Source: Minisyncoccota bacterium (GTDB lineage Bacteria > Patescibacteriota > Minisyncoccia > Phycocordibacterales > PALSA-1337). Taken from it: 64,000 nucleotides of DNA. The first letter of the stretch is position 1. Each line of letters starts with the position of its first letter. The notes under the pieces were generated by a model. That model was given only the letters and a program-made list of their open reading frames with translations. It had not been told where the DNA came from and made no database searches. Location of the stretch: assembly GCA_041662725.1 (NCBI GenBank), contig JBAZRX010000001.1:85-64084 (forward strand), in the 5' to 3' direction. Below are positions 11,199 to 52,814 of this stretch, in pieces. A program made the position numbers and the translations under genes.

Positions 11199-11221
11199 TG
11201 CTAAGTCTCTGCAAATGTATG

Positions 11222-11295
11222 TCCGCCCCCTAGGATTCGAACCTAGGACCCTCGAGGTATAAGCTCGATGCTCTAACCAACTGAGCTAGGGGCGG
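11222..11295 (-). tRNA. tRNA with anticodon UAU (predicted tRNA-Ile reading AUA)
   Basis: rc folds as CCGCCCC-TA-GCTC-AGTTGGTTA-GAGC-A-TCGAG-CTTATAC-CTCGA-GGGTC-CTAGG-TTCGAAT-CCTAG-GGGGCGG-A. Anticodon positions 34-36 = TAT. CCA not encoded. Confidence 0.75.
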
Positions 11296-15292: not shown

Positions 15293-15463
15293 GTCAAAAT
15301 CATAACTCTAAATTCACAAATCGACTAGACCGATCTGGGAATATTAATAATAATTTCTTTTGGCTTTATAACAGTGCAATTATATGTGCTTGCACTGCGC
15401 AGCTCCGATAGAAGCGAATGCGTGTGCTTGCACTGCGTAGCTCGCGATTAGCGAGCGAAGCAG

Positions 15464-15826
15464 TGGAGATGGGCGGAATCGAACCGCCGTGCAACTGATA
15501 TGATTCGAACGATTCTACGGTGGTAGAAAACTTTATATTTAATGCTCTTACTGAAAAGGTTTTCAAAACATAAGAGCACGATCTCTAGATTTCGGTAAAT
15601 AAGGTGAGAAGTCCTATTTACCTACATTCAAGTTATAACACTCGGTCCTCGAGTTAGAATCCCCCGAGGCGAGCGCGCCCTTTAAACAAAGGCGAATGCA
15701 AAGTCCTTTTGTCCGAAATACGGAGAAACGGTTGTTTTAGCATTTAGAATTTCCATCAGATTTACGAGTTAATGGTGCTCGCACCGCACGAACGAACATG
15801 ATCGATTGTCTATGCCGATCATCCCC
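15464..15826 (-). ncRNA. ssrA: tmRNA (ssrA)
   Basis: rc starts GGGGATG... and ends ...GGCGGTTCGATTCCGCCCATCTCCA (tRNA-like T-arm plus acceptor pairing with the 5' GGGGATG). ~363 nt. Lies immediately downstream of smpB on the same strand. Candidate tag ORF GCT AAA ACA ACC GTT TCT CCG TAT TTC GGA CAA AAG GAC TTT GCA TTC GCC TTT GTT TAA (AKTTVSPYFGQKDFAFAFV*). Confidence 0.75.
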
Positions 15827-15949
15827 TCATTTTTGGTATTGCAAAAATGAGATCGGAAGATTTTTCATGGCGAAGCCGTGAAAAATTTCCGATCAAACTT
15901 CGATTTTAATACATCAAAATCGAAGTCAAATCTTTACAATTACACTTTT

Positions 15950-16402
15950 TCAACGATCTCTAAACTCCCTTCTTATCACCCTATCTGTCTCGCGTTTTTT
16001 CGTAGTTTCGCGTTTGTCGTATTTTTTCTTTCCTCTCACAACCGCTACAGATACTTTGATAAGCTTGGTCTTATTATATATTGAAATAGGCACGATTGTC
16101 AATCCTTTACCCTTACCAGCCTCAATATCTGCTAACTTTGCAATTTCTTTTTTATTTAAAAGAAGTCGACGGTTCCTACGTGGTTCATAACCAGAGGGTG
16201 TATTATTTTCTTGATACGGCGGTATAAATACATTCATGGCATAAGCTTCCCCGCCACGAATTATCACATATGAGCCATCCAATGAACCCTGCCCTTTCTT
16301 TAATGATTTAACTTCAAAACCGAGCAATTCAATACCTGCCTCAAATTTCTCTAATATTTCATAATCAAAATGGGCTTTTTTATAATCTACCAATGTAGTC
16401 AT
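15950..16402 (-). CDS. smpB: SsrA-binding protein SmpB
   Basis: Listed ORF runs to 16480; conserved core begins at the internal 'MTTLVDYKKAHFDYEILEKFEAGIELLGFEVKSL'. C-terminal 'RGKKKYDKRE' tail typical of SmpB. Confidence 0.85.
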   Translation of the reverse strand: MTTLVDYKKAHFDYEILEKFEAGIELLGFEVKSLKKGQGSLDGSYVIIRGGEAYAMNVFIPPYQENNTPSGYEPRRNRRLLLNKKEIAKLADIEAGKGKGLTIVPISIYNKTKLIKVSVAVVRGKKKYDKRETTKKRETDRVIRREFRDR

Positions 16403-19566: not shown

Positions 19567-20076
19567 TTGGCAATACGAGTCAAAATAAATCATCAAATTA
19601 AGGCGCCGGAATTGCGCGTCGTTACAGCCGAAGGAGAGAATCTCGGTGTAATAAGTCTTTCTGTGGCTCTAGCAGAGGCACAAAAGCGGGGGCTTGATCT
19701 TATTGAGATCTCCCCTACAGCAATACCACCAGTAGCCAAGATAATGGATTTTGGCAAATATCAGTACGATGAAAAGAAAAAGAATAAGATTGCTAAGAGT
19801 AAAACTCAGATGAGTGAGCTCAAGGTAGTCCAGATCAAGATAGGCACAGGAGACCATGATTTAGAACTAAAAGCTAAAAATATCTCCAAATGGCTTACTG
19901 AGGGTAATCGTGTAAAAGTAGATTTATTTCTTATCGGACGTGCTAAGTACATGGAAATGAAATTCTTGAAAGAACGTATGGACCGCGTCCTAAAACTTAT
20001 TACTATTGAATACAAGATTAGCCAAGAAGTAGTAAAAGGTCCAAAAGGTTTGAGTATGGTTATTGAAAAAAAGTAA
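19567..20076 (+). CDS. infC: translation initiation factor IF-3
   Basis: 169 aa. 'INHQIKAPELRVVTAEGENLGV...' matches the IF3 N- and C-domains. Reading frame starts on TTG (non-AUG start typical of infC autoregulation). Confidence 0.9.
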   Translation: MAIRVKINHQIKAPELRVVTAEGENLGVISLSVALAEAQKRGLDLIEISPTAIPPVAKIMDFGKYQYDEKKKNKIAKSKTQMSELKVVQIKIGTGDHDLELKAKNISKWLTEGNRVKVDLFLIGRAKYMEMKFLKERMDRVLKLITIEYKISQEVVKGPKGLSMVIEKK

Positions 20077-20079
20077 AAA

Positions 20080-20230
20080 CTCATAACTCAAAATGCAAAA
20101 CTTAAACACAATAATAGTGCAAAATTCAAAACTCAAAATGCAAAACTTAAACACAGAATTTAATATTAAAAGATCAAGCATTTCAAAAGATGCGATTAAA
20201 CTTTGCACTTTGAGTTTTGCATTTTAAATT
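20080..20230. repeat. UGCAAA-family hairpin repeat, copy C1 (internally duplicated)
   Basis: 'ctcaaaatgcaaaacttaaacaca' occurs twice, followed by inverted 'ctttgcactttgagttttgcatttt'. ~95% identical to the rc of 32519..32625. Confidence 0.8.
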
Positions 20231-20237
20231 AACCACC

Positions 20238-20432
20238 ATGTCAATAAAAACAAATAAATCATTCTCAAAACGTTTCAAAGTTACCAGAAATGGCAAGATA
20301 ACTTCACGTAGACCTGGACAGAACCATTTCAACGCCAAAGAGCGTACAGGAACAAGTATGAGTAAGCGTCGAACTGTTAACGTGTTTATGGACAATAAAG
20401 CCAAAAGCAGATTTTTAGCAACTTCTAACTAA
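20238..20432 (+). CDS. rpmI: 50S ribosomal protein L35
   Basis: 'MSIKTNKSFSKRFKVTRNGKITSRRPGQNHFNAK' L35 consensus; listed ORF begins 21 nt upstream. Confidence 0.85.
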   Translation: MSIKTNKSFSKRFKVTRNGKITSRRPGQNHFNAKERTGTSMSKRRTVNVFMDNKAKSRFLATSN

Positions 20433-20449
20433 CTTTTAATACTAATAAC

Positions 20450-20794
20450 ATGACCAGAGTCAAAAAAGCCGTAAATGCCCTAAAAAATCGTCGTTCAGTT
20501 CTCAAAGCCGCCAAAGGTTTTCGCTTCCGCCGTTCTACCAACGAGGCCGCCGCTAATGATGCTCTTGCACATGCTGGTGCCTATTCATTTGCACATCGTC
20601 GCGACAAAAAGGGCGATTTTCGCCGTCTTTGGAATGTAAAGATTAATGCCGCTCTTCGTCCTCTTGGTTTTTCTTACTCAAAGTTTATTGGGGCCGCAAA
20701 AAAGAAAGGAATCGCCCTAGACCGCAAAACTCTAGCAAATCTAGCAGAATTCCAGCCAGATACTTTCAAGAAAGTCGTTGAATCTGTAAAGTAG
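20450..20794 (+). CDS. rplT: 50S ribosomal protein L20
   Basis: 'MTRVKKAVNALKNRRSVLKAAKGFRFRR...' L20. Confidence 0.9.
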   Translation: MTRVKKAVNALKNRRSVLKAAKGFRFRRSTNEAAANDALAHAGAYSFAHRRDKKGDFRRLWNVKINAALRPLGFSYSKFIGAAKKKGIALDRKTLANLAEFQPDTFKKVVESVK

Positions 20795-24334: not shown

Positions 24335-24425
24335 AATTTAATAATTAAACAATTGCACAATTTAACAATCCCACAATTGAATAGATACAAGTTGTTTTAA
24401 TTGTCATATTGTAGAATTGTTTAAT
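24319..24425. repeat. ACAATT-family hairpin repeat A1 (arms of tandem 8-bp nnACAATT units; contains a 24-bp internal direct duplication)
   Basis: 'ttaaacaattgcacaattta' x2 ... loop ... 'ttaattgtcatattgtagaattgtttaat'. The right arm encodes the last 7 codons of adk (LNNSTI*). Confidence 0.8.
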
Positions 24426-25024
24426 CTTTCCATAATATCCTTATGAATCTCTTCTACCGACCTTTCTCCAAATATCTTCAAAAAATTATATTTTGGATTA
24501 CCATCATAATAAGAGAGAGTTGGTACAACTTCAGTTTCATACCAAGATAAACGCTCTTTTATATCTTCTTCATTATCATCTATACGCTTTCTAGCTAATA
24601 AACGTTTCAATGCCTCTTCAGAACTAATTTCGATATTCACTAACCATGGTTTTGAAAGATTATAAAAATCAAAAATAGAATTTAGTACACCAGCCTCATG
24701 AAATCTTCTAGGAGTACCATCAAAAATAAGATGTTCATTACCTGTATATTTCTCTGAAAGAACCTTTATCCATAAATATACGGGTAGAAATTCAGGCTGA
24801 AGACCACCTTTATCGTATATCTCTTTTGACTTAATCTGTGTAAAAGTTGGACCATTAATAAATTCTCTTAATTCTTTACCTGTCTCTATATGCAAAATAT
24901 CTCTTGCTGGATCCTTTTCTTTTAAAGCTTTTATTAAAAGCTCCACCTGTGTACCTTTACCACAGCCAGAGCGACCTATAAATATAAATGATTGAGGAAT
25001 CATAAGCTTAAGTTTACAGTGCAA
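24404..25024 (-). CDS. adk: adenylate kinase
   Basis: P-loop 'GRSGCGKGTQ', LID and NMP-binding regions. Confidence 0.9.
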   Translation of the reverse strand: MHCKLKLMIPQSFIFIGRSGCGKGTQVELLIKALKEKDPARDILHIETGKELREFINGPTFTQIKSKEIYDKGGLQPEFLPVYLWIKVLSEKYTGNEHLIFDGTPRRFHEAGVLNSIFDFYNLSKPWLVNIEISSEEALKRLLARKRIDDNEEDIKERLSWYETEVVPTLSYYDGNPKYNFLKIFGERSVEEIHKDIMERLNNSTI

Positions 25025-25082
25025 AAGATAAAATGCAAAGTTCTTTGAATTGAACTCTGCATTTCGCCTTTTGCACTATTTT
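25005..25082. repeat. UGCAAA-family hairpin, copy C3, in the secY–adk spacer
   Basis: 'agtgcaaaagataaaatgcaaagttc ... gaactctgcatttcgccttttgcact' inverted repeat. Confidence 0.6.
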
Positions 25083-26370
25083 AATACTCTCTCATTGCTA
25101 CCTGAGCATCTACTTTCTTTAACAAATCAAGAACTACAGAAACAACGATTAGAAGGGCTGTTCCACCAACAGCAACAGAACGATCATTGCCTGGAGAAAA
25201 AGCTTGGATAATAAGTGGAAGAATAGCGACAGCACCAAGGAAAAGCGCACCAACAAGCGTAATGCGAGTCACAATATTACCTATATGTTCCTGTGTATCC
25301 TCACCTGGTCGTACGCCCGGAATAAATGCTCCTGAACGTTGAAGATTTTCTGAGATCATCTTTGGATCAAAAGTTACAGCTGTATAGAAATATGTGAAAA
25401 GTACAACTAAAACAAAGTAGACGGCGCCATAGAACCATTGATTATTGAAGAGTGTCACTACATAAGAAGCCAAACTTGCGATAGTTGGGTAAGCGGCCCA
25501 CTTAGCTAAAGCTGATGCAATAATCTGAGGAAACATCAATATGGAAAGAGCGAAGATTATTGGAATAACGCCAGATTGATTAAGACGTAATGGTAAATAA
25601 GTTGATGAGCCACCGTATACTTTATTACCACGCACTTGTTTAGCATAAGTTACAGGCACAGAGCGTTCAGCTTCCGTAACATAGACTACACCAGCAACAG
25701 AAGCAATAGCGATGACTAACACTGCAAGGTAGAAAGGAAGATCTGATGCTCCAGCTGTAATAATTTTCTGATAATTTTGTACAATTGCCGTAGGTAAACT
25801 GGAAACGATACCAGCAAATATAATAAGTGAAACACCGTTGCCTATACCAAATTCTGATATAAGTTCACCGATCCACATAAGTAACATTGAACCAGCAGAT
25901 ACAACAATAACGTTAACAATGAAAGAGAATATATCCATTTGCGGTAATACATTCTGTGATTGCAAAAGAATAATGAAACCAATACCTTGAACAACAGCCA
26001 AAGGCGCACCGATAAGGCGAGAATACTGTGAAAGTTTCATGCGTCCAGCATCACCTTCTTCATGCATAAGAGCTTTCCATGAAGGAAACATCATGGTCAA
26101 TAACTGGATAATGATAGAAGCTGTGATAAAAGGACCAACACCAAGCATAACTATGGAAAGGTTTGAAAGACCTCCTCCAGAAAATATATTCAAAAACCCA
26201 AGAAGTTGACTAGAGGAGAGTAATTTTGCTAACGCTACAGGGTCAATTCCTGGAATAGGAATAGATGCTAATGCGCGAAATATTACAAGAGCAATAACAG
26301 CAAAACCAATCCTCTTTCTTAAGATTGGATCTCTGAAAGCTATCGTTACTTTTTCTATAAAATTTTGCAT
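25081..26370 (-). CDS. secY: preprotein translocase subunit SecY
   Basis: 429 aa, 10 TM; conserved SecY plug/TM2-TM7 blocks. Confidence 0.95.
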   Translation of the reverse strand: MQNFIEKVTIAFRDPILRKRIGFAVIALVIFRALASIPIPGIDPVALAKLLSSSQLLGFLNIFSGGGLSNLSIVMLGVGPFITASIIIQLLTMMFPSWKALMHEEGDAGRMKLSQYSRLIGAPLAVVQGIGFIILLQSQNVLPQMDIFSFIVNVIVVSAGSMLLMWIGELISEFGIGNGVSLIIFAGIVSSLPTAIVQNYQKIITAGASDLPFYLAVLVIAIASVAGVVYVTEAERSVPVTYAKQVRGNKVYGGSSTYLPLRLNQSGVIPIIFALSILMFPQIIASALAKWAAYPTIASLASYVVTLFNNQWFYGAVYFVLVVLFTYFYTAVTFDPKMISENLQRSGAFIPGVRPGEDTQEHIGNIVTRITLVGALFLGAVAILPLIIQAFSPGNDRSVAVGGTALLIVVSVVLDLLKKVDAQVAMREY

Positions 26371-29294: not shown

Positions 29295-29505
29295 TTATTT
29301 TTATTCCTTCGTAGCTCTGCGAAGCGGAGCGTAGTAGGAGATATTTTTGAACAAAACGAGGATTGGTTAGCTATTTACCTTGAGCGAGGGCTACCCTCTA
29401 TCCAAGCTAATCTGCTTCCAATCACTGTATTTCGTACAAATTCCTTAAAAACTAAGGTATTTAAGATACTAGCAGATGAGAGAAAAATGTGCAAATTTTC
29501 TAAAC

Positions 29506-30060: not shown

Positions 30061-30065
30061 GGTGG

Positions 30066-30206
30066 TTAATTAAACAATTCTACGATATAACAATTAGATA
30101 ATTACACAATTCTACAATATGACAATCAAATAGCTATAAATTGTGTTAATTGTTTAATTGTCATATTGTAGAATTGTCATATTGTTTAATTGTTTAATTT
30201 TTTAAT
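30066..30206. repeat. ACAATT-family hairpin repeat A2 (largest; ~60-bp arms of 8-bp units nnAATTGT)
   Basis: Left 'ttaattaaacaattctacgatataacaattagataattacacaattctacaatatgacaat', loop 'caaatagctata', right 'aaattgtgttaattgtttaattgtcatattgtagaattgtcatattgtttaattgtttaatt'. Confidence 0.85.
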
Positions 30207-30426: not shown

Positions 30427-30435
30427 GATGGTTTA

Positions 30436-30478
30436 TTTAACAATTCTACAATATAACAATTAAACAATTACAATTAAA
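30436..30478. repeat. ACAATT-family single-arm tandem array A3
   Basis: 'aacaattctacaatataacaattaaacaattacaatt'. Confidence 0.7.
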
Positions 30479-31334: not shown

Positions 31335-31350
31335 ATAATTCTTATGTGTT

Positions 31351-31404
31351 TATTCGTAGATTTGTATATTTGTAGCTCATTCGCATAATTCGTAAATTCG
31401 TAGT
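31351..31404. promoter_or_regulatory. ACGAAT-family motif B1 upstream of rpmC
   Basis: 'tattcgtagatttgtatatttgtagctcattcgcataattcgtaaattcgtagttt' shares the ~40-nt core with 44700..44746 and 52450..52488. Confidence 0.6.
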
Positions 31405-31839: not shown

Positions 31840-32535
31840 TTAACTGTTTTTCTGATCCTTCTTAAATATCTCTCCTTTATAAATCCATACCTTAATTCCA
31901 ATATCTCCGTATGTCATATGGGCCTTCTCGCGAGCAAAATCAATGTCAGCACGCAATGTCTGTAAAGGAATACGTCCACGCTTCATATCTTCGCTTCTAG
32001 CGATCTCTGCCCCTCCCAAGCGACCTCCTAGATGGATTCTTATCCCTTGTACCTCTTTGTTGGCCATAATCTTTTCTACAGATTGCTTCATAACACGACG
32101 GAAAGGTAAGCGCTTTTCCAAAGATTCAGCCACCATCATTGCAACTATAGAAGCATTAGATGCTGGACTGCGTATTTCCTCAATATCAATCTTTAGTTCT
32201 TGATTAGCAATTTCTGCTTTATTTTCACGTAACAAACGCAAAAGTTTCTCACGTAATTTAACAACTCCATCTCCAGCCTTACCTATAAGCATACCTGGTC
32301 TTGAAGTCTTAACAATAACACGCAAAACCTTTTGATTACGTTCTATATCAATTCCACCGAGGAAATTAGCCCTTAAATGTTCTACCAGAAACTCACGAAT
32401 GAGTAAATCTGCCTTGAGAGCAGTACGGTATCCTTTATTCACAAGAAACCAACGACTATTCCAATCGCGGATGATTCCTAATCTATGTGAATATGGGTGA
32501 ACGGTGTGTGACATGATAATTAAGTTAAAATGCAA
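31840..32535 (-). CDS. rpsC: 30S ribosomal protein S3
   Basis: KH domain + S3-C; probable start at the internal 'MSHTVHPYSHRLG' (~32514). Confidence 0.9.
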   Translation of the reverse strand: MHFNLIIMSHTVHPYSHRLGIIRDWNSRWFLVNKGYRTALKADLLIREFLVEHLRANFLGGIDIERNQKVLRVIVKTSRPGMLIGKAGDGVVKLREKLLRLLRENKAEIANQELKIDIEEIRSPASNASIVAMMVAESLEKRLPFRRVMKQSVEKIMANKEVQGIRIHLGGRLGGAEIARSEDMKRGRIPLQTLRADIDFAREKAHMTYGDIGIKVWIYKGEIFKKDQKNS

Positions 32536-32625
32536 AAGTCAAAATGCAAAGTTTAATCGCATTATTTGAAATGCTTGATCTTTTAATATTAAATTTTGTG
32601 TTTAAGTTTTGCATTTTGAGTTATG
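32519..32625. repeat. UGCAAA-family hairpin repeat, copy C2 (reverse complement of C1)
   Basis: rc is 'cataactcaaaatgcaaaacttaaacacaaaatttaatattaaaagatcaagcatttcaaataatgcgattaaactttgcattttgacttttgcatttt', ~95% identical to 20128..20228. Confidence 0.85.
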
Positions 32626-32627
32626 AA

Positions 32628-32966
32628 TTATGGGTTTTTCTTTGAGGCTAAGGTAATGCTCACATGACTAGTTCTCTTTTTGATTGGATGTGCTGAACCA
32701 CGAGAAACTGGCATGCTTCTTTTCATAACAAATCCTTGATCAACACGAATTTCCTTTACAAAAAGATCTGTACTGTCAATTTTGAAATTATTTTTAGCAT
32801 TAGCAACAGCTGAGGCTAAAAGATCGTTTAGAGGACCTCCAGCTTTTTTATCAACATGTGTAAGTATATTATTAGCATCAAAAACGCTTTTACCGCGAAC
32901 CATATTTGCAACAACACGGACCTTACGAGGAGAAATACGATAATTTTTAAGTGAAGCGGTAATCAT
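32628..32966 (-). CDS. rplV: 50S ribosomal protein L22
   Basis: 112 aa L22. Confidence 0.9.
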   Translation of the reverse strand: MITASLKNYRISPRKVRVVANMVRGKSVFDANNILTHVDKKAGGPLNDLLASAVANAKNNFKIDSTDLFVKEIRVDQGFVMKRSMPVSRGSAHPIKKRTSHVSITLASKKNP

Positions 32967-33473: not shown

Positions 33474-34325
33474 CTACACATTAACCTTTTTTTCAGTATT
33501 TACAAACATAGAAATCAGAGAGATAAGGAGGTAGATATACCAAGGAATATTAACACCAAAAATAATACCTAGAACAACGTCAATTATAATCGCTAACGTT
33601 ATAGCATATAAGCCTAATTTGAATGCCTGTCTATAAGTTACATCTATCTTACGTACCTTGTTTATTATCCAAAATATGAATGATCCAATCGTAATTGTTA
33701 ATAAATTCACAATAGTGTAAATAAAGAATAGGCCAGCGAAAAAGCCAACAATAATAAATGGAATCACTAATTTTATATATGGCTGTATCTTTGATATCTC
33801 TTCACCAAACTTAACTTTGTCTAATACCATATTAGGTACTGACTTCAAACTTTGAACAGATAGTTTCCCTTTATTGTTGTCTGGATAGACTAGATAATCT
33901 CTTGTAAGAAACGCAAACGTCTTATTATCATCAAATAATTCAGGTGTTAAAGAAGACTTCGTATCTATAACCAAGATATTTTCTGGAATTATTTCTTCCT
34001 CAGTTTTATTACTGAATTTATTAGACAATACTTCAGGAAGAGGAATATAGTATGGTTCTTGAACATTTGTTGATACCTGACCGTCCTGGAAAGTAATCTT
34101 TAATTCTTGTGGAAATGCATTAGTTAATATATCAAATGTTTCCTGAGAAAACACATTACTAATTATTGGAATAACTTGAAAGCATGCAACAATAGCTGTT
34201 ATTATCGTTACAAGTAGAATAAGTTTAAAAAAGTATTTAAATGCTTTTCCGAGACTAGTACTTTTCTGTTCAACATAGAAAGCTGGATTATAAACACTAT
34301 CTTTAATTGTTTTGAATATTGTCAT
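33474..34325 (-). CDS. hypothetical integral membrane protein (DUF1189-like?)
   Basis: 283 aa, N-terminal and C-terminal TM clusters around a soluble middle. Confidence 0.45.
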   Translation of the reverse strand: MTIFKTIKDSVYNPAFYVEQKSTSLGKAFKYFFKLILLVTIITAIVACFQVIPIISNVFSQETFDILTNAFPQELKITFQDGQVSTNVQEPYYIPLPEVLSNKFSNKTEEEIIPENILVIDTKSSLTPELFDDNKTFAFLTRDYLVYPDNNKGKLSVQSLKSVPNMVLDKVKFGEEISKIQPYIKLVIPFIIVGFFAGLFFIYTIVNLLTITIGSFIFWIINKVRKIDVTYRQAFKLGLYAITLAIIIDVVLGIIFGVNIPWYIYLLISLISMFVNTEKKVNV

Positions 34326-34424
34326 AAAAATGATTTATTTAAATAAAACCGACTGATTCGATTAAGACTAATTGTAAAACAAATTGATAATTTTAGCTAA
34401 TGATTGAATCATTACTTATGCGTT

Positions 34425-34729
34425 TAGAGCTTGGTAAATATGTTCTTTCATAACACTTGGTTGTAATTCAAATAATTGCACAATATGACAATTTAACAAT
34501 TAAGCTTGTTTCTAGCAAAACCCCACCACACTCATGTTCTAGAGCATTTCGCAGGCGTCGGGGAAATGTAATCCGCATACCTACGACACGACGCCGAGAA
34601 TAGACGGCCTTGCGAGTCTTTCGTTATTCGAGCAAGGCCGATCGTGCTCTAGAACATGAGTGTGGTGGGGTTTTGCTTAGAGATGGCGATCTTGCGAGTG
34701 TTATGAAAGAACATATTTACCAAGCTCTA
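34425..34729. repeat. 305-bp nested palindromic element (MITE-like or structured regulatory RNA/DNA)
   Basis: Outer perfect 33-bp IR (34425..34457 vs 34697..34729). Inner perfect 32-bp IR (34515..34546 vs 34645..34676). GC-rich core with further short IRs (ggccttgc/gcaaggcc). Contains an ACAATT-family arm at 34462..34505. Confidence 0.85.
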
Positions 34730-34740
34730 TACACGGTATT

Positions 34741-35577
34741 ATGATATTATTAGTTCATATGTTTTATGAACTATTTATTAATGGGTCACCTATTCTTAAT
34801 GGTAATGTTGTTGTCGTATTTACACTTATTTTCTCATTCTTAGCAATAATCTTAGCTCTTATTACCTATACTATTAGAAAGATAAAAGAAAATGAATCAC
34901 AAAAATATGAATTCATTACTATTATCGCTCACAAATTTCGCACACCGTTAACTTCAATAAAATGGCTTGCTTTGTCATTAATACAAAAAGAAACAGACCC
35001 TTATAAAAAACAAGACTTAGAAGATATCAACAAGTCCAATCAAAAACTCATAGATCTTACTGGAACTTTGATAGAATTGACCGAAAACGCTAATTCAAGC
35101 AAAGCTTCATATGTTTTTGAACGATTATCCTTATGTTCCCTAGTGCGTGATGTCTCCGATACATTTAAAGACTCTTTCCATAAGAAAAATATATTCTTTT
35201 CCGTCAGCTGTTCGGAGGAAATTTTTGTTAAAGCTGATAGACCAAGATTGGAATTTGTAATTCAAACTATTTTAGAAAATGCGCGCAATTATACATCTCC
35301 AGGCAAGAATGTTGATGTTTTTGTGTCTCGCTTACATCGCAGAGCTATTATCACTGTAGTAGATCATGGTATAGGCATAGACCAAAAAGATATTTCAAAG
35401 ATTTTTTCAAAATTCTATAGAACTCAAAATGCAAAATCTTTTGATACCGAAGGATTCGGTGTAGGTTTATACCTGGCAAAATCAATTATAAGACATCACC
35501 GAGGTAAAATAGAGATATTTTCTGAAGGAATAGATAAAGGCTCAACTTTCTCAATTGTCTTACCTAAAGTAAAATAA
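34741..35577 (+). CDS. sensor histidine kinase (orphan; no adjacent response regulator)
   Basis: 278 aa. One N-terminal TM, H-box 'IAHKFRTPLTSIKW', N/G1/G2 boxes 'ILENARNYT', 'DHGIGID', 'GFGVGLYLAKSII'. Confidence 0.8.
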   Translation: MILLVHMFYELFINGSPILNGNVVVVFTLIFSFLAIILALITYTIRKIKENESQKYEFITIIAHKFRTPLTSIKWLALSLIQKETDPYKKQDLEDINKSNQKLIDLTGTLIELTENANSSKASYVFERLSLCSLVRDVSDTFKDSFHKKNIFFSVSCSEEIFVKADRPRLEFVIQTILENARNYTSPGKNVDVFVSRLHRRAIITVVDHGIGIDQKDISKIFSKFYRTQNAKSFDTEGFGVGLYLAKSIIRHHRGKIEIFSEGIDKGSTFSIVLPKVK

Positions 35578-35700: not shown

Positions 35701-36555
35701 TTATACACTACTTCTCATATTCTTTCCTGGCTGGCGTCTGGAAACAACATAAACATTTGAATATTTCTTTGATCGACGTGTTCTCTGACCCTTTCCTGCC
35801 GGTTTACCCCACATGGTCTTCAAACGACGCAAACCACGACCTTGTCTTTGTTCACCACCACCATATGGGTGATCTACGGGGTTCATGGCTGAACCACGTA
35901 CTGTTGGGCGAATACCCATCCAACGTGAACGACCGGCTTTACCTATGTTCACAAGACGAGACTCTTCGTTAGAAACCGCACCGATAGATGCCCAAGAATC
36001 TTCATGAATCTTTCTAACTTCTGTTGATGGCATCTTAATGTGTGTATATCCAGCATCGTTAGCAACTACTTGAGCAAAAGAACCAGCAGAACGAACTAAC
36101 TTTGCACCACTTTTTGGCTTAACTTCAATATTATAAATAAATGTACCGACTGGAATCTTCTTTAAAGGTAAACGATTACCTATTTCAATAGGGGCATTTT
36201 CCGAAACGATAAATGAATTACCAACTTTCATTGTCTTTGGTAAAAGAACATAACGTTTTGCACCATCTTTATAATTTACAATACCGATATAACCAGTACG
36301 AAAAGGATCATACTCAACAGTTTTAACAGTCGCAATAATATCTTTCTTATCATACATAAAATCAATCTCTCTATAGAGTTTCTTGTGTCCTCCACCATGA
36401 TGGCGAGTAGTAATGCGTCCAGCAGAATTGCGTCCCACATCACGTTTCATTCCATGAGTAAGAGACTTGTTTGGTTCTGACACAGTCAAATATTCTTTGA
36501 ACGGTAAAACCGTCATATGTCTCCTTGATTTACTTGTTGGATTAAATGATTTCAT
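35701..36555 (-). CDS. rplB: 50S ribosomal protein L2
   Basis: 284 aa L2 consensus including 'HHGGGHKKLYR' region and C-terminal 'GGGEQRQGRG'. Confidence 0.95.
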   Translation of the reverse strand: MKSFNPTSKSRRHMTVLPFKEYLTVSEPNKSLTHGMKRDVGRNSAGRITTRHHGGGHKKLYREIDFMYDKKDIIATVKTVEYDPFRTGYIGIVNYKDGAKRYVLLPKTMKVGNSFIVSENAPIEIGNRLPLKKIPVGTFIYNIEVKPKSGAKLVRSAGSFAQVVANDAGYTHIKMPSTEVRKIHEDSWASIGAVSNEESRLVNIGKAGRSRWMGIRPTVRGSAMNPVDHPYGGGEQRQGRGLRRLKTMWGKPAGKGQRTRRSKKYSNVYVVSRRQPGKNMRSSV

Positions 36556-40284: not shown

Positions 40285-40289
40285 GAAAA

Positions 40290-40378
40290 TTTAACAATTA
40301 CACAATTAGACAATTTAACAATTGAGACGCCGTGCTTTAATTGTTCAATTGTGTAATTGTTAAATTGTAGAATTACTA
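40290..40378. repeat. ACAATT-family hairpin repeat A5
   Basis: 'aacaattacacaattagacaatttaacaattg' – loop 'agacgccgtgcttt' – 'aattgttcaattgtgtaattgttaaattg'. Confidence 0.8.
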
Positions 40379-41902
40379 TTTTACATACGTCACAATCTTA
40401 TCCCCTGCTCTCAATCCTGAAATAATTTCAACCATACCATCTGAACCTTTAAGACCAACTTCTACAGGTATTGATACAAAACTTTTACCATCAGATCCAA
40501 GAAGACGCACATTTTTTGTTCCAGAAACATCAATAATAGTTCTTGTAGGAACAGTAATCACGTTACTGCGTTCACGAGTCAGTATATCTAAGTTAGCGGT
40601 CATGCCAGAACGAATACGCTCATCTTTCTGTAAAAAATGTAAAGTAACTTTATAAGTAGGTACGCCTTCCAATATTGTTTCAGCCGGGTCCATAGTAACT
40701 GCTACTGCCGGAAAATCCACATTCTGACCATAAGCATCCAAAGTAGTAGAAGCATAATTACCAATAACAATCTTAGCAATATCAGCTTCTGGAACATAAG
40801 CTTCTATTTTATATACATCATCACTTTGAACTCCATACACAATCTTACCTGCCTGAACAAATTCACCCACACTAGGATCTGCACGAGTAATAATGCCGCT
40901 AATAGGAGAAACTATTCTATCTTTTTCATATTCTGCTTTATATGCTGCTACCAGAGCGGCTTGTGCCGCAATAGTTTGAGCAGATGACCCCGTCTTTCTT
41001 AAAATAAAATTGCTATCAGCTTGTTCATACGCTGACAAAGCATTTTCCAAACCAGTTTTCGCACTAGTAATTGAAGCTATAGCTTGATTCGTTAATGTAA
41101 GGCCTGAGTTTATTGATGAAACATAAGTATCAATAGTAGCCTGAGTTAAACCAGAATTACCTAGATTTAGATTATTAACAATAGTAGAAAGGCTACTCAT
41201 AAAATCTCTCACCACATTTACATACATATCTGCTTTTGAAATAAGAATATTTATATTATCTGTTGATGTTACAGCATCAATATCTGCTTTCCACTTAACT
41301 AAAGTTTCAGCTACTGAAATACGTGACATGTTAATTGTATTTTTTTCAGTTTGAGACTGAGTACGTACTTTTATTTCAGGGTTAGCACTTTGAGGACTAT
41401 CAAATAATGAATCGGCATAGTTTGTAATAGCACTTTGTGCCTGTACATAAGCCGTTCTAGAAGCATCAAAAGCTTCTTGTTTAGCATTCGCAAGAGAAAC
41501 TTTAGCTGTATTAACCTTTGATTGTTCCACTGCAAGTTCTTGTGAATTCAGATTGCGAGATAAATCATCCAACTTAGCTTGTGCTGAAGCAAGATTAGCA
41601 GCATCACCAGAACTGTTAAGCCCAGCAATCAGCGAACCTTTTTCTATTTTATCCCCAACTTTGACATTAATAGTTTTAATAATTCCACCTTTTTCAAAAG
41701 CCAAATCCGCCTTACCAACTGGAGATATTTTACCAGTAACACTAACTTTTTCTGTAATATTACCAACAGTAGCTACAGCGAATTCTATATTAACAGCAGG
41801 ATTTCTATTATAAAAAATAAATACTAGTACAATCGCAAGTATTACTACAAAAATAAAAACATATTTGTTTTTAATATAATGCTTAAAAAAAGATCTTTTC
41901 AT
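40376..41902 (-). CDS. efflux periplasmic adaptor (HlyD/MacA-like) protein
   Basis: N-terminal TM, long coiled-coil region, beta-barrel/lipoyl-like C-terminus. Listed ORF extends to 41962 across a GC-rich palindrome; start placed at 'MKRSFFKHY'. Confidence 0.65.
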   Translation of the reverse strand: MKRSFFKHYIKNKYVFIFVVILAIVLVFIFYNRNPAVNIEFAVATVGNITEKVSVTGKISPVGKADLAFEKGGIIKTINVKVGDKIEKGSLIAGLNSSGDAANLASAQAKLDDLSRNLNSQELAVEQSKVNTAKVSLANAKQEAFDASRTAYVQAQSAITNYADSLFDSPQSANPEIKVRTQSQTEKNTINMSRISVAETLVKWKADIDAVTSTDNINILISKADMYVNVVRDFMSSLSTIVNNLNLGNSGLTQATIDTYVSSINSGLTLTNQAIASITSAKTGLENALSAYEQADSNFILRKTGSSAQTIAAQAALVAAYKAEYEKDRIVSPISGIITRADPSVGEFVQAGKIVYGVQSDDVYKIEAYVPEADIAKIVIGNYASTTLDAYGQNVDFPAVAVTMDPAETILEGVPTYKVTLHFLQKDERIRSGMTANLDILTRERSNVITVPTRTIIDVSGTKNVRLLGSDGKSFVSIPVEVGLKGSDGMVEIISGLRAGDKIVTYVK

Positions 41903-41918
41903 AAACAAATACATTGTA

Positions 41919-41952
41919 CCACGAGGCCTCGCCTCGAGGCGAGGCCTCGTGG
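41919..41952. promoter_or_regulatory. perfect 34-bp GC-rich palindrome upstream of the efflux operon
   Basis: 'ccacgaggcctcgcctcgaggcgaggcctcgtgg' is its own reverse complement; stark GC contrast with the surroundings. Confidence 0.7.
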
Positions 41953-42035
41953 AAATCGCCATAAAAAGTCTTAAGCAAACAAATATCCGTAGATTTTCTT
42001 AAGTAAAGCAGACAAAAACAAACTAGATATTAAGA

Positions 42036-43172: not shown

Positions 43173-43182
43173 AATATTTAAT

Positions 43183-43269
43183 ATTCAACAATTTAACAAT
43201 TCCACAATTTAACAATCAAAACACCGTGTTCTAATTGTTAAATTGTCATATTGTTGAATTGTTAAATTA
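43183..43269. repeat. ACAATT-family hairpin repeat A6 (tuf–rpsJ spacer)
   Basis: 'caacaatttaacaattccacaatttaacaat' – loop 'caaaacaccgtgttc' – 'taattgttaaattgtcatattgttgaattgttaaatt'. Confidence 0.8.
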
Positions 43270-44457
43270 CTACGCGATCACTTTTGTTACAACACCAGCA
43301 CCCACAGTCTTTCCTCCTTCACGAACAGCAAATCTCTGTTTATCTTCAAGAGCAACTGGAGCAACGAGCTTTACTTTGAAAGTAATAGTATCTCCTGGCA
43401 TAACCATCTCAACCTTTTCAGGAAGAGTTACTTCACCAGTAACATCAGTAGTACGAATATAAAACTGAGGCTTATAACCTGTAAAGAATGGAGTGTGACG
43501 ACCACCTTCTTCCTTCTTCAAAACGTAAACTTCTGACTCAAATTCTGTATGAGGTTTGACAGACCCTGTCTTGGCAAGAACCTGACCTCTTGAAACATCA
43601 TCTTTAGCTGTACCACGAAGAAGAACTCCGGCGTTATCTCCAGCCATTCCCTCTTTGAGAGATTTATTAAACATTTCAATACCTGTAACAGTAGTCTTGG
43701 TTGTATCCTTGAAACCTACAATTTCAACTTCCTCACCAACCTTGATCATACCGCGTTCAATACGACCAGTAACCACAGTTCCACGACCTTCAATAGAGAA
43801 GATATCCTCAATAGGCATAAGGAAAGGCTTATCAACCTCACGAACTGGAGCTGGAATATAAGTATCAAGTGCGTTCATGAGCTCATCAATCTTTGTTGAC
43901 CATGTAGCATCACCATTCAAAGCATTTGAGGCTGAACCACGAATAATAGGAACATTTTTACCATCAAACTTGTTCTTCGTAAGAAGTTCGCGAACTTCCT
44001 CTTCAACAAGATCAATAAGATCTGTCTCAGGAACGAGATCACACTTGTTCAAGAAGACTACAATCTTTGGAACACCCACTTGGTAAGCCAAAAGAACGTG
44101 CTCACGTGTTTGTGGCATAACACCATCAGTTGCAGAAACGACGAGAATAGCTCCGTCCATTTGAGCGGCACCTGTAATCATGTTCTTAATAAAGTCGGCG
44201 TGTCCTGGACAGTCAATGTGAGCATAGTGACGAGTAGGAGTTTCGTACTCTACGTGAGACAAAGAAATTGTAACTGTCTTTGTAGCATCACGAACAGTAC
44301 CACCCTTTGTGATATCAGCGTATGCTTTAACATTTGCTAAACCTTTCTTGGATTGAACGGCCAAGATAGCTGCTGTCAAAGTAGACTTCCCGTGGTCAAT
44401 GTGACCAATGGTTCCAACGTTGATATGCGGCTTGTTGCGATTAAATTCTGCTGCCAT
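43270..44457 (-). CDS. tuf: elongation factor Tu
   Basis: 395 aa; 'GHIDHGKST', 'DCPGHADF', 'NKCD' GTPase motifs. Confidence 0.95.
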
Positions 44458-44635: not shown

Positions 44636-44746
44636 AAAATTCGCAAATTTTTTTCTACGAATCTACGAATATGCGAATGAAACACAGCATCTGCGATTAT
44701 TCGTAGATTCGTAGCCCATTCGCATAATTCGTAGATTCGTAGTTTA
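44636..44746. promoter_or_regulatory. ACGAAT-family hairpin B2 (upstream of tuf, immediately downstream of the giant gene)
   Basis: Left arm 'ctacgaatctacgaatatgcgaatg', right arm 'cattcgcataattcgtagattcgtag'; 8-bp ctACGAAT units. Confidence 0.75.
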
Positions 44747-47700
44747 CTTAGCAAAATATTCTCCTAAAGAATCCCAAACTGAAGCTCTTCCACTAGTACT
44801 ATTATTTACAGAAGTTGGTGCTGAATTAGGGGTTGGTGTAGGAGTTGGTGTAGGTTTTATTAAATTATAATATTCTGCTGTATTCATCAGAACGCCTTTT
44901 ATATAACTAATATCATAACCAGAATTTACCCAGTAATCTAAACCAGCTTGATCTGGATTACGTTTAAGTAAAGTTACGTACAACTGAGTTATATCATTAA
45001 TTCTTGCTTGTTTTGGAGAAATTGTTGATGTTGGGGTTGGGGTTAAAGTTGGTGTAGGTGTTGGTGAATAATACGGTTTTGTTGTTGGTGAAGGAGAAGG
45101 AGTAATTACTGAAGATTGTGCCTTCACAGTTGTTGTTTGACTTGAAACTATTGATGAAACAGGAATAACCGCAACAGCCTGTGAACCATCGGTGAATTTA
45201 ACTATAAGTTTACCGCCATACCATGTTGTTATTGACTCTTTTTGACCATAGAGCATATAGACTTGAGAACTATATGATGCTTGACCAAGAGGCAAAACGT
45301 CATAATACTTATCATTAAATTGAGTACTTGAGCCCTGTATAACAATAACAAGTGGATATGGCTTTCTACCATAAGAATCAAGTTCGGCACTTGTTGACCA
45401 CGCTTCACCATTATTATCACTCAAAACAGTTATTGATTTTATACTTTTTCCACCAGCACTATTGATTTTCATTTCCATACGCCATCCCCAATCAGATGGA
45501 TCTTTACTTATATACCCACGTCCAGAACTAAATTGATCCCAAGCACCAGCACGATCTTCATTGGCGCTATACACAACAGCTTTAATAGTGCCATCAAATG
45601 TAGGGTAATTCGATGACGGTGTTTGTGTAGGGGTAGGATTTAAAGAAACAGCAGAAGTTTTAATTGTAGACTGTGTTACTTTTGCATATGTTGGTGGAAG
45701 ACTAAGCTTCTCTTCGTCTGATGCTATAACTGTTTTACCATCTTTTACTGAAAGAAGTTCGGCCTTAGCAACAACAGTTTGGACAACACTGGTATTATTT
45801 TTAAATATCACATCAATAAAACCGTCAGGAGCAACTTTATTTTTTACACCACAAGCAAGACCGCCGTTTACATTAGTTGGAGCTGAAGCGACAACACCTG
45901 TAGGACAGACGATTGAAAGAATCCAATCAAACTCATCAACTTGACTGTTTGTAGAATAACGTACACGAATACCTTCATTAGTTCCGATTATTTTTGAAGA
46001 AAGAGTAAAAACAGAAGAAGAAACTGGGGCTGTAATAGAAGATTGTGCCGAATTAGAAACTTTAACTTTTATAGTATTACTTTTTATAGCTTCATTTTTA
46101 GCATTTAAGGACATTAAATATAAATTGTAATCACCATCAACAATAGAAGTAGTTGGCTCATTCCACCAACCATCTGGATGCACGCCACGACCTATTGTGC
46201 TAGGAATTGTAAAACTGAGTTTAGAACCATCGTATAGTGAATATCCTGTTAATGTACGAACATCATGAGAATACCCCACTGACCATGTTTTTGAGCCATC
46301 AACTGTTGTAAGAATAATATTTCCTGTTCTACCAGCACCTGTTGCATAAATTGTTAATAAAGATCCTACTGAAACAGGCTGAGGTGCAACTCGGCTTATT
46401 TCTGGTTGTACTCCACTTACTGGAGGAATAATACTAAAAAAATCATTACTATCATCACAAATATCTGTTCCTGCTTTACATACCCTTGCCTTATATTGAC
46501 CAACAGAAATTTGACTAGGATACGTAGAAAATCCGAGTGACTGTGCATTTTTATTTGATGGTTTTAAATTTAACTGGATAGGACTTGGTATAACTTGACC
46601 AGATGAATTTAGTAACTTTACATCAACTGATTGGGTAGGATCTATGGAATCCCATATAACACTCAATGATTCGCCCTGTGCTATTTTTTCTCCTCCATTA
46701 GGTGAAACAATAACAACACTACCCCTATTAGGAGCTGGAACGTCAACTTTAGCCTTAACCGCTTTTGCATTACATGATGCATTTATTTTTTTTAAAGTAA
46801 AAGGTCCAGCAACGCCAGTTGAAGGAACTCCGATTGATGTTTGAAATGCTTTTACTGCGGCTTTGGTATCAGAACCAAAATATCCCTTCAGAGCATTACC
46901 TAAAGAAATACTCGGAATATCAAAACCGTTATTGATCAACCATGTTTGCAAAGCTACGACTTCTGATCCAGAACTACCTACAGAAAGGCCAGAGTTTTCT
47001 AAAGCAAAGATAGCTGAGAAGTTGTAACACAAACTTATTCCTGAAGAAGCTTTGAATTTAGAGTTAGTTGAATCAACTGAACTATCCGCCACAGTACACA
47101 CATATCCGGTAGGACATCCTTCAGGTTGAACAGCTAGAGGTGTACAAACATAACCTTCAGGACATGAAAAAGGAAGTGTACAAATATATCCAACAGGACA
47201 TAAAACAGAAGATTGCTCTAGTGCATCCCCTACAGCGGCAACAAGTCTTGTATCTCTTGGTACAAGACTAACTGGACTAGAACTCGGCATTGGTGTTGGA
47301 GAAGATGAAGATGTTGGAGAAGTTGAAGGAGTCGGTGTAGGAGATGGAGTTGAAGAAGGTGTAGGAGATGGAGTTGGAGTAATAATCGGTGTTGGGGTAG
47401 GAGTAGAAGCTGGAGATGGCGTTGGTGTTGAAGAAGGAGCTACTGAAGGAGTCGGCGAAGAATAATAACTTGAAGTTGGAGATGGTGAAGGTGTATATGT
47501 TGGTGAGTAAGTAGATGTTGGGGAAGGAGTATATGTTGGGGAATAAGAAGAAGTTGGTATAGGAGTAGAAGTTGGTCTAGGTGTATATGTTGGTGAGTAA
47601 GTAGAAGTCGGAACAGGAGTTGCTGAAGATACTGGTCTAGGAGTAGCTGAGTAAGCAGGAATTGGAGTTGTTGCTGGAACATAAGCAGGACTTGGAGAGA

Positions 47701-52380: not shown

Positions 52381-52488
52381 AACGAATCTACAAATTATGC
52401 GAATGACTACAAATCTACAAATATTTGCAAACATTATGTTTCATTTGCATATTCGTAGCCCATTCGCATAATTCGTTAATTCGTAGTT
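52381..52488. promoter_or_regulatory. ACGAAT-family hairpin B3 upstream of rpsL (likely str-operon promoter region)
   Basis: 'acgaatctacaaattatgcgaatg' ... 'cattcgcataattcgttaattcgtag'. Core 'attcgtagcccattcgcataattcgt' identical to B2. Confidence 0.75.
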
Positions 52489-52814
52489 GGCAATTATGAA
52501 TTCTTCACCGTTTTTGGTTTGAGTATGTCTTTCAACTTAGCCTTGCAATCTAGGCCTTGTTATAGACAAATACCATAACGATTACTCATTTTTGCCTTAA
52601 TAAATGTACAATCTCTAATGAAAGAGACAGTGGGGGTACAGTAACATAAAAGAAATCATGGTGCAATGAATCGCAAGAATCTATTTTATCAAAATGGTAA
52701 AAAAGATTGGTGACGCTTATTTACAAGGTTTTAATTTTGCCATGAATGAATCATAAGCCTATGCTGTTATTAAATTTGATGTAGATTTCCAACACTAACC
52801 AGAACCAATTAACA

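Follow-up and report, generated by a model that had tools for sequence, protein, structure and literature searches.

We describe here a family of short hairpin elements in a 64,000-nt stretch of DNA (the window) from a Minisyncoccota bacterium of the Patescibacteriota (contig JBAZRX010000001.1, assembly GCA_041662725.1), which has a G+C content of about 36% and uses the standard genetic code. Two copies of the element fill the spacers between infC and rpmI in an operon on the forward strand and between rplV and rpsC in an operon on the reverse strand, and a third lies between secY and adk (Table 1). The gene names infC, rpmI, rplT, rplV, rpsC, secY and adk, assigned in an original prediction made from the sequence alone, are borne out by NCBIfam profiles, and an Rfam search detected no rRNA genes in the 64 kb. 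The window is rich in intergenic hairpins made of tandem short words, which fall into several word families, and the heptamer hairpins treated here are one case of a wider habit of this genome. Comparison with other genomes shows that these copies are internally deleted derivatives, lacking the open reading frame (ORF), of a cassette encoding a four-helix-bundle protein, of which both arms and the first codons have been kept.

In a repeat search, positions 20120-20243 were paired with the reverse complement of 32509-32632 (124 nt, 91% complementary), and a gapped local alignment of the inner units of copies 1 and 2 gave 101 identities in 108 positions, i.e. 93.5%, close to the approximately 95% originally claimed. 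The second match of the repeat search, between 20068-20111 and 32596-32639 (89%), means that copy 1 carries a 45-nt tandem duplication of its 5′ arm. Both copies form an imperfect hairpin of about 110 nt and lie in the same sense orientation in both mRNAs. Copy 3, predicted as a third and more diverged copy, is indeed related: its hairpin at 25018-25077 has arms of 26 nt at 85%, and its 3′ arm is identical to that of copy 2 at 30 of 35 positions. It is orthologous to the secY-adk element of a relative (locus L110).

The arms are arrays of 7-nt words, NNCAAAA on one arm and TTTTGNN on the other. Tandem Repeats Finder (TRF) reported a period of 7 at 20120-20151 and 32527-32550; the predicted imperfect hairpin with UGCAAAA words was thus found, with a word period of seven and not six. 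The element is a quasi-palindrome, its reverse complement reading nearly the same words, and the order “A-rich arm first” was rejected as a marker of polarity because the hairpin's reverse complement gives the same words. The polarity call rests instead on the 44-nt centre of the element, which is non-palindromic, on the mismatches, and on the internal reading frame, which exists in the sense direction only. Two or three copies by themselves are insufficient for an orientation rule, the probability by chance being 0.25-0.5.

For comparison we used 73 metagenomic loci centred on orthologues of rpsC, whose amino-acid identity ranges from 50 to 92%. The rplV-rpsC spacer measures 12 nt or less in 44 of 63 relatives and at least 28 nt in 14, and operon spacers of the related loci generally have a median length of 10 nt (n=538), 49 of them being at least 55 nt long. 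Diverged orthologous elements, alignable in their 3′ half, occupy the rplV-rpsC spacer of four relatives (L090, L095, L143 and L079), which makes copy 2 an old resident. Three of them (L090, L095 and L143) have only weak sense-strand folds (-8 to -10 kcal/mol), which suggests decay. In the three relatives looked up for the infC-rpmI spacer (L196, L197 and L198, with initiation factor IF3 92, 88 and 84% identical) this spacer lacks the element and measures 16, 13 and 1 nt, which makes copy 1 a recent copy, derived from copy 2 and placed in a second operon. At the 3′ end of rplV in two further relatives, arm-type tandem words (AACTCAAAAGTCAAAGCTCAAAAGTCAAAA in L096 and three times CGCAAGAG in L115) are translated as a C-terminal extension of L22, apparently half elements that were absorbed into the coding sequence.

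Coding cassettes with the same arms

One genome per species was scanned with an 18-mer of the arm, which yielded 89 loci with single matches. Few of these extended (L030, L050, L067 and L079), and extended matches were reported at three Patescibacteria loci. At L079 a related heptamer hairpin occupies the rplV-rpsC spacer. At L067, between dnaK and dnaJ, the arm words lead into an ORF starting ATGCAAAACTTAAACTCAAAA (MQNLNSK...), which is followed by a complementary T-rich 3′ arm. The product of this ORF belongs to PF05635 (23S rRNA intervening-sequence protein, 1.9e-25) and TIGR02436 (four helix bundle protein, 6e-29), and its nearest solved structure is 2rld. A protein search with a cut-off of E <= 1e-10 retrieved upwards of 1,500 homologues; of the 120 listed, nearly all begin with MQN(L/Y)NSKFK, the arm words in translation. 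Furthermore, a cluster-representative search from one member gave 4,787 clusters at 50% identity, many of which have K/N/Q/S-rich repetitive N-termini of the same kind.

Eight cassette loci with a PF05635/TIGR02436 ORF between the arms were collected (L067, L170, L163, L179, L189, L199, L201 and L202), and they share a single anatomy. The stop codon of the upstream gene is followed by A-rich words over mostly 14-27 nt (92 nt in L179), then by the ATG and the ORF, the stop of the ORF, T-rich words of mostly 45-64 nt (40 nt in L201, 115 nt in L202) and the ATG of the next gene. The ATG and the first nine or so codons lie inside the 5′ arm, and since the two arms can pair they enclose the start codon of the ORF itself, as in L201, where the ATG lies within a terminal stem of -35.8 kcal/mol. 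The full cassettes have no Shine-Dalgarno sequence and most have no promoter of their own, the exception being L179 with a TATAAT-like motif just upstream. No transposase adjoins any of the eight cassettes, and the four-helix-bundle gene is the sole type of ORF found between such ends.

The link between these cassettes and the window copies is given by the sequence of the arms. Tandem heptamers of the same words occur in the 5′ flanks of the cassettes and in the window copies, a 26-nt word of copy 1 recurs exactly at the 5′ junction of cassette L201, which was found by protein homology and not by DNA, and the 3′ arm of copy 2 has an 18-nt exact word in common with the 3′ flank of the L163 cassette. 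The window copies start with MQNLNT(K/E)FN (MQNLNTKFN in copy 2) and then diverge from the protein. As the four-helix-bundle ORF is absent from the window and the 29-codon remnants tested, including the part of copy 1 from 20138, gave no Pfam match, the copies were filed as ORF-less derivatives and not as full members. In addition, the long gaps in the operons of relatives were considered as a place for four-helix-bundle genes; none was found there, and the rplE-rpsN gaps hold unrelated genes.

The cassette gene is co-oriented with both neighbours at six of six distinct sites, namely dnaK-dnaJ (in three lineages), LamG-LamG, hypothetical-TSP3 repeat, pilin-pilin, ABC ATPase-permease and pilin-like-TPR. 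Given co-directional neighbours, the probability of this outcome by chance is about 0.016. Because most cassettes have neither a promoter nor a Shine-Dalgarno sequence of their own, co-orientation can be understood as a requirement for their expression, and the simplest account of the shared sense orientation of copies 1 and 2 is inheritance from this rule. The originally claimed common polarity with respect to transcription in two operons on opposite strands thus holds, for the window copies themselves as well as for the parent cassettes and the internal frame.

The placement of the elements is also constrained. In 16 of 17 hairpins from ribosomal-protein operon spacers the stem lies closer to the upstream stop codon than to the next ATG (p 0.0003), starting in most cases 0-6 nt after the stop and ending 10-25 nt before the ATG. 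Copy 1 starts directly after the infC stop, and its short G-poor tail before the rpmI ATG resembles the spacers of relatives, as do the last nine or so nucleotides of copy 2 before the rpsC ATG, which resemble the short spacers of relatives without the element. More generally, the tails (TTAACCACC, TTTACCACC, CTTATCATC) look like the short spacers of element-free relatives. A pair of loci considered as filled and empty site (L103/L104) was rejected as an artefact of ORF calling, the two sequences being identical.

Reading frames, folding and rival explanations

In each of the window copies an ATG located 13-18 nt downstream of the preceding stop codon opens a mini-ORF that runs up to the next gene. 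In copy 1 it starts 16 nt after the infC stop, ends with TAA 10 nt before the rpmI ATG and has a second in-frame ATG at 20138; it is the sole open frame, with 4-5 stops in each of the other two. The mini-ORF of copy 2, whose N-terminus matches the common start of the four-helix-bundle proteins, begins 13 nt after the rplV stop and its TAA also lies 10 nt before the next ATG, that of rpsC. Of 11 heptamer-family elements, 10 have exactly one stop in the frame set by their first ATG, situated 4-17 nt before the next ATG or overlapping it; the two remaining frames contain between zero and five stops, with fewer than two in just three cases. The exception, L109, is open in the frame of its second ATG. 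In the orthologous element of L143 the mini-ORF starts 2 nt after the rplV stop and ends 4 nt before the rpsC ATG. Orthologues use different frames when their sequences are aligned, so that what is preserved is an open frame and not a particular peptide. Among 46 long spacers, 15 have in the sense direction, and 2 in the antisense direction, an ORF that spans half of the spacer or more and ends beside the next ATG (Wilcoxon p 0.0025), and mean ORF coverage in shuffled spacers was 10%.

We consider the element to be what remains of a selfish cassette after internal deletion of its ORF, tolerated in operon spacers and not a regulator, and assign to this explanation a probability of about 0.65. 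The full cassette, with its A-rich heptamer 5′ arm and its complementary T-rich 3′ arm, would depend on host transcription for expression, and the element would be a selfish or neutral passenger. The setting for its tolerance would be a genome that hardly uses Shine-Dalgarno sequences, with such motifs upstream of just 9 of 61 window genes and a usual start context of ..A(T/C)C-ATG, and in which genes lie 1-10 nt apart. A ribosome ending the upstream gene may restart at the ATG of the mini-ORF, which lies within the part of the stem that the terminating ribosome would have opened. The restarted ribosome would then melt the hairpin, translate both arms and terminate beside the next ATG, thus acting as a translational relay, and the stem may in addition shorten the physical distance between stop and start. 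We infer from the arrangement of the frames that the mini-ORF, and perhaps also the hairpin, keeps translation coupled across the insertion.

Several observations weigh against parts of this explanation. No PF05635/TIGR02436 gene is present in the 64-kb window, and a single-sequence phmmer search of about 0.7 Mb of related ribosomal-protein loci returned none either, so that a local source of the copies is not shown. With six co-oriented sites the statistical support for the orientation rule is no stronger than p ~0.016, and the nucleotide similarity of copy 2 to the cassettes separates sense from antisense weakly, because the element is quasi-palindromic. TAA, a candidate target-site duplication, follows the 3′ arm in most elements and doubles as the stop of the mini-ORF, and by our estimate it is expected by chance in about 65% of AT-rich tails. 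The hairpin of copies 1 and 2 is weak in the sense strand, which weakens the idea that the stem bridges stop and start. Hairpins of the ACAATT, TACGAAT and L101/L110/L144 types have no such ORF and are tolerated in the same operons all the same, so the mini-ORF is not the sole route to tolerance. Finally, the coupling role of the mini-ORF is deduced from sequence only.

The original prediction had favoured an RNA-level function. A dedicated cis-regulatory RNA of the ribosomal-protein operons, acting as processing site, attenuator or rRNA-site mimic for feedback, would suit the occurrence of the copies in operons of the translation apparatus, their sense orientation, and a folding of the sense RNA that is much more stable than that of dinucleotide shuffles (z -4.7, -3.0 and -8.6 for copies 1, 2 and 3). 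In copy 3 the inner stem with a T-rich stretch was also flagged as terminator-like, the “tail” belonging to the outer stem. However, copies 1 and 2 are not terminator-like, terminator and promoter signals there being nothing above shuffle expectation, and neither the gathering threshold nor E-value searches of Rfam, which include L20 and other ribosomal-protein leaders, gave a match. The element is absent from the same spacers in most relatives, where they measure 1-16 nt, and the constant position across related genomes that marks ribosomal-protein operators was not observed. Among the orthologous rplV-rpsC elements, for which the alignment is good in the 3′ half, RNAalifold found no consensus sense-strand stem, with five trivial and no compensatory pairs, and the covariation sought among the copies by the original prediction was thus not seen. 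The same arms, moreover, flank an unrelated gene between dnaK and dnaJ, in an ABC transporter operon, between pilin genes and elsewhere.

The folding itself gives no support for selection on the sense RNA either. Copy 3 folds better as sense (-36.5 kcal/mol), whereas the antisense strand is the more stable one in copy 1 (-44.5 vs -28.0 kcal/mol) and copy 2 (-29.5 vs -16.8 kcal/mol), as in 13 of the 17 hairpins in ribosomal-protein operon spacers, against 3 with a more stable sense strand (Wilcoxon p 0.049). The sense strands of these 17 contain 23 A.C mismatches and 11 G.U pairs, the same trend towards the antisense appears in 6 of 8 full cassettes, and hairpin-free spacers are G-poor in the sense strand (C 871 vs G 520). 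Selection for sense-strand folding thus found no support, the trend being opposite and parallel to the G-poverty of the spacers; in our reading the better antisense folding reflects decay driven by compositional pressure in the regions of translation start, and it does not point to an antisense RNA. The regulatory-RNA explanation is largely refuted by the comparative data and appears very improbable; the element is not a ribosomal-protein operator or attenuator.

Two further explanations concern mobility and processing. [quoted passage not shown] Orientation and position would then simply mark the sites at which insertion is not lethal. Yet the only coding partner found for the arms is the four-helix-bundle gene and not a transposase, and the co-orientation at all six sites, the greater proximity of the stem to the upstream stop than to the next ATG in 16 of 17 hairpins and the open frame in 10 of 11 elements exceed what random MITE insertion predicts. 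Strong selection after random insertion could produce these regularities, and we regard a MITE in this strict sense as unlikely. The original choice of RNA function rather than a randomly inserted MITE is a false one: as miniature ORF-less derivatives the copies are MITE-like, the parent has no transposase, and orientation and placement are constrained. Somewhat less favoured still is the view that the stem is a substrate of RNase III, whose cut would split the polycistronic mRNA and uncouple the stability of upstream and downstream genes. Long stems are present, homologous rRNA cassettes are excised at their terminal stem (PMC4990558), and rRNA insertions of bacteria of the candidate phyla radiation (CPR) carry PF05635 ORFs. 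On the other hand, the stems are AT-rich, interrupted in the sense strand and decaying in orthologues, cleavage between tightly coupled ribosomal-protein genes would require a new downstream translation start, and the frame that is open across the element argues for translation through an intact mRNA. We consider such a processing role improbable, and prefer the tolerated cassette remnant.

Further hairpin families and other features of the window

The remaining hairpins of the window consist of other words. The hairpin between rplX and rplE belongs to the same architecture class as the heptamer copies, without necessarily sharing their origin. TRF assigned a period of 11 to the GATAAAG family of the window, against 8 for the ACAATT and TACGAAT families, and ACGAAT words occupy the rplP-rpmC spacer both here and in two relatives (L098 and L106). 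A tie of the ACAATT, TACGAAT and GATAAAG families to a coding cassette was considered and rejected, as no partner was found and the words vary between genomes. Six relatives (L101, L110, L130, L144, L108 and L096) have word families of their own in the hairpins of ribosomal-protein spacers (ACTAGTAA, TCTAGAAT, GATTGAAA, GTTGGTTG, GATTTAGG and AATTAGAA), mostly without mini-ORFs.

Table 1. Genes, hairpin elements and mini-ORFs discussed in the text, in window coordinates.
Feature	Position	Strand	Evidence and remarks
infC	19567-20076	+	NCBIfam
Copy 1 of the heptamer hairpin	20077..20237	+	Entire infC-rpmI spacer; repeat search, alignment, folding; duplicated 5′ arm 20077-20120, inner unit 20121-20227, then a 10-nt tail, a TTAACCACC-type leader before the rpmI ATG
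Copy 1 mini-ORF	20093..20227	+	44 codons plus TAA (MQNLNTIIVQNSKLKMQNLNTEFNIKRSSISKDAIKLCTLSFAF)
rpmI	20238-20432	+	NCBIfam
rplT	20450-20794	+	NCBIfam
adk-map spacer element	24335..24403	-	ACAATT, period 8
adk	24404-25003	-	NCBIfam
Copy 3 mini-ORF	25000..25062	-	20 codons (MQSSIQRTLHFIFCTVNLSL); TGA overlaps the adk ATG (ATGA)
Copy 3 of the heptamer hairpin	25004..25080	-	secY-adk spacer, tight hairpin; folding, alignment
secY	25081-26370	-	NCBIfam
rplX-rplE spacer hairpin	30061..30201	-	ACAATT, period 8; same placement and TTAACCACC-ATG tail; no mini-ORF
rplN-rplX spacer half element	30427..30473	-	ACAATT, words of the 3′ arm only
rplP-rpmC spacer half element	31335..31404	-	TACGAAT words, period 8
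rpsC	31840-32514	-	NCBIfam
Copy 2 of the heptamer hairpin	32515..32627	-	Entire rplV-rpsC spacer; repeat search, alignment
Copy 2 mini-ORF	32525..32614	-	29 codons plus TAA (MQNLNTKFNIKRSSISNNAIKLCILTFAF)
rplV	32628-32966	-	NCBIfam
Hairpin at the 3′ end of the RND-adaptor gene	40286..40378		ACAATT family
tuf-rpsJ spacer hairpin	43173..43269	-	ACAATT, period 8; no mini-ORF
Hairpin upstream of tuf	44654..44746	-	TACGAAT family
Hairpin upstream of rpsL	52407..52490	-	TACGAAT family

Other structures in the window are of a different kind. A near-perfect hairpin of about 310 nt (34422-34732) has outer arms of 36 nt at 97% and inner arms of 33 nt at 100%, with an ACAATT half-element nested at 34456-34516; the 415-nt spacer that holds it folds at -186 kcal/mol and has no Rfam match. 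It is located between an unnamed ORF of 283 aa (33474-34325, reverse strand) and a histidine kinase gene (34741-35577, forward strand), a pair that splits the S10 operon between rplB (35701-36555) and rpsS. The rplE-rpsN spacer (29295-29505) comprises 211 nt and is structured; in relatives (L098, L106, L110, L117, L122, L125, L128, L134, L135, L138, L140 and L142 were compared) it measures 126-207 nt, or 549-5928 nt with unrelated inserted genes, and it looks like a conserved leader combined with an insertion hotspot. Two strong hairpins at 15826-15950 lie immediately upstream of the tmRNA gene (15461-15826, reverse strand). At the 5′ end of the RND-adaptor gene (40376-41962), a perfect 34-nt palindrome, CCACGAGGCCTCGCCTCGAGGCGAGGCCTCGTGG at 41919-41952, is rich in G+C, which is unusual for a genome with 36% G+C.

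An ORF of 1439 aa (44744-49063) between fusA (49276-51420) and tuf (43270-44457) contains long internal periodic repeats of 6/12/18 nt at 47285-47680, and its only family match is a weak SleB-like stretch. ARAGORN identified a tRNA-Ile with the anticodon TAT (UAU) at 11221-11295, and not the usual CAT modified to lysidine. TATAAT-like hexamers are found 6-9 nt 5′ of the ATG at 8868 on the forward strand and at 13245, 62321 and 63462 on the reverse strand; their location so near to the start codon of several window genes suggests leaderless mRNAs.

Related systems and significance

The closest known system is the intervening sequence (IVS) of 23S rRNA with an S23p/four-helix-bundle ORF, as found in Leptospira, Coxiella burnetii and others. 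In Coxiella, RNase III cuts the 28-bp terminal stem of the 23S rRNA IVS, the loop contains a homologous ORF, and the start of this ORF is preceded by tandem heptamers (GACAGAT x3) whose number varies between strains (PMC4990558), and PF05635 ORFs have been found in rRNA insertions of CPR bacteria (bioRxiv 10.1101/2024.02.27.582315). The cassettes described here resemble these elements in that the ORF belongs to the same protein family (PF05635/TIGR02436) and is enclosed by inverted repeats forming a long stem, that heptamer words precede the ORF start, that the ORFs are prone to decay and short ORF-less versions exist, and that the host gene with which the element shares a transcript is strongly expressed. 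In contrast to the IVS, the host site is not a helix of 23S or 16S rRNA but a spacer between protein-coding genes just behind a stop codon; the ORF is gone from the window copies, and they retain a short frame that is open as far as the next start codon, a feature without parallel in rRNA. Excision by RNase III is known for the IVS and hypothetical for the elements described here.

Further likenesses are more distant. Correia, ERIC/IRU, RUP, BOX and REP/BIME elements as well as MITEs are likewise imperfect palindromes of about 100-150 nt that occur in several copies, often in transcription units, with a patchy distribution, and the RU/ERIC elements of enterobacteria are reported to carry small ORFs (PMC2759123, PMC3184786). 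Unlike these, the parent described here encodes a four-helix-bundle protein and not a transposase, the arms are arrays of 7-nt words, and orientation and distances to stop and start are constrained. Coupling through relay or leader ORFs and ATGA overlaps, as in bacterial operons and phages, is comparable with respect to the stop of the mini-ORF 4-17 nt from or overlapping the next ATG, the scarcity of Shine-Dalgarno sequences and the very short native spacers of this genome. In the present case the putative relay ORF belongs to a repeated element that was inserted, and it passes through both arms of a hairpin.

Integron cassettes with attC sites also combine an imperfect palindrome with small ORFs that lack a promoter and follow the direction of one outside the cassette. 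Recombination in integrons uses the folded form of one particular DNA strand; our observation goes no further than a usually better folding of the antisense strand, and the likeness is a resemblance only. Moreover, the arms of our cassettes flank the ORF on both sides, neither an integrase nor an array was seen, and the sites are dispersed among housekeeping operons. The searchable literature, whose coverage is incomplete, yielded no account of such cassettes or hairpins from Patescibacteria operon spacers.

The nature and mobility of rRNA intervening sequences and their S23p/four-helix-bundle ORFs have been open questions since the early 1990s (cf. PMC4990558). We put forward, tentatively, that four-helix-bundle cassettes are a general class of operon-embedded selfish elements in Patescibacteria, of which the rRNA IVS is just the best-known habitat; they may settle after stop codons in the sense direction, use host transcription and, together with their remnants, preserve downstream expression by means of a relay ORF. 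As the four-helix-bundle protein is related to Avd, the accessory factor of diversity-generating retroelements, the strict polarity of the cassettes could even reflect copying via an RNA intermediate.

For the interpretation of Patescibacteria genomes, these elements explain some ribosomal-protein operon spacers of 100-160 nt in a lineage with a norm of about 10 nt, and such spacers should be annotated neither as regulatory RNAs nor as small hypothetical proteins. The two-copy hairpin is itself a remnant in which nothing indicates a regulatory role; what is out of the ordinary is the biology of the cassette from which it descends. With the same cassette in mRNA spacers, its co-orientation, its placement after stop codons and its ORF-less remnants with an open frame become testable handles on its host requirements, on translation through the element and on its cutting by RNase III.

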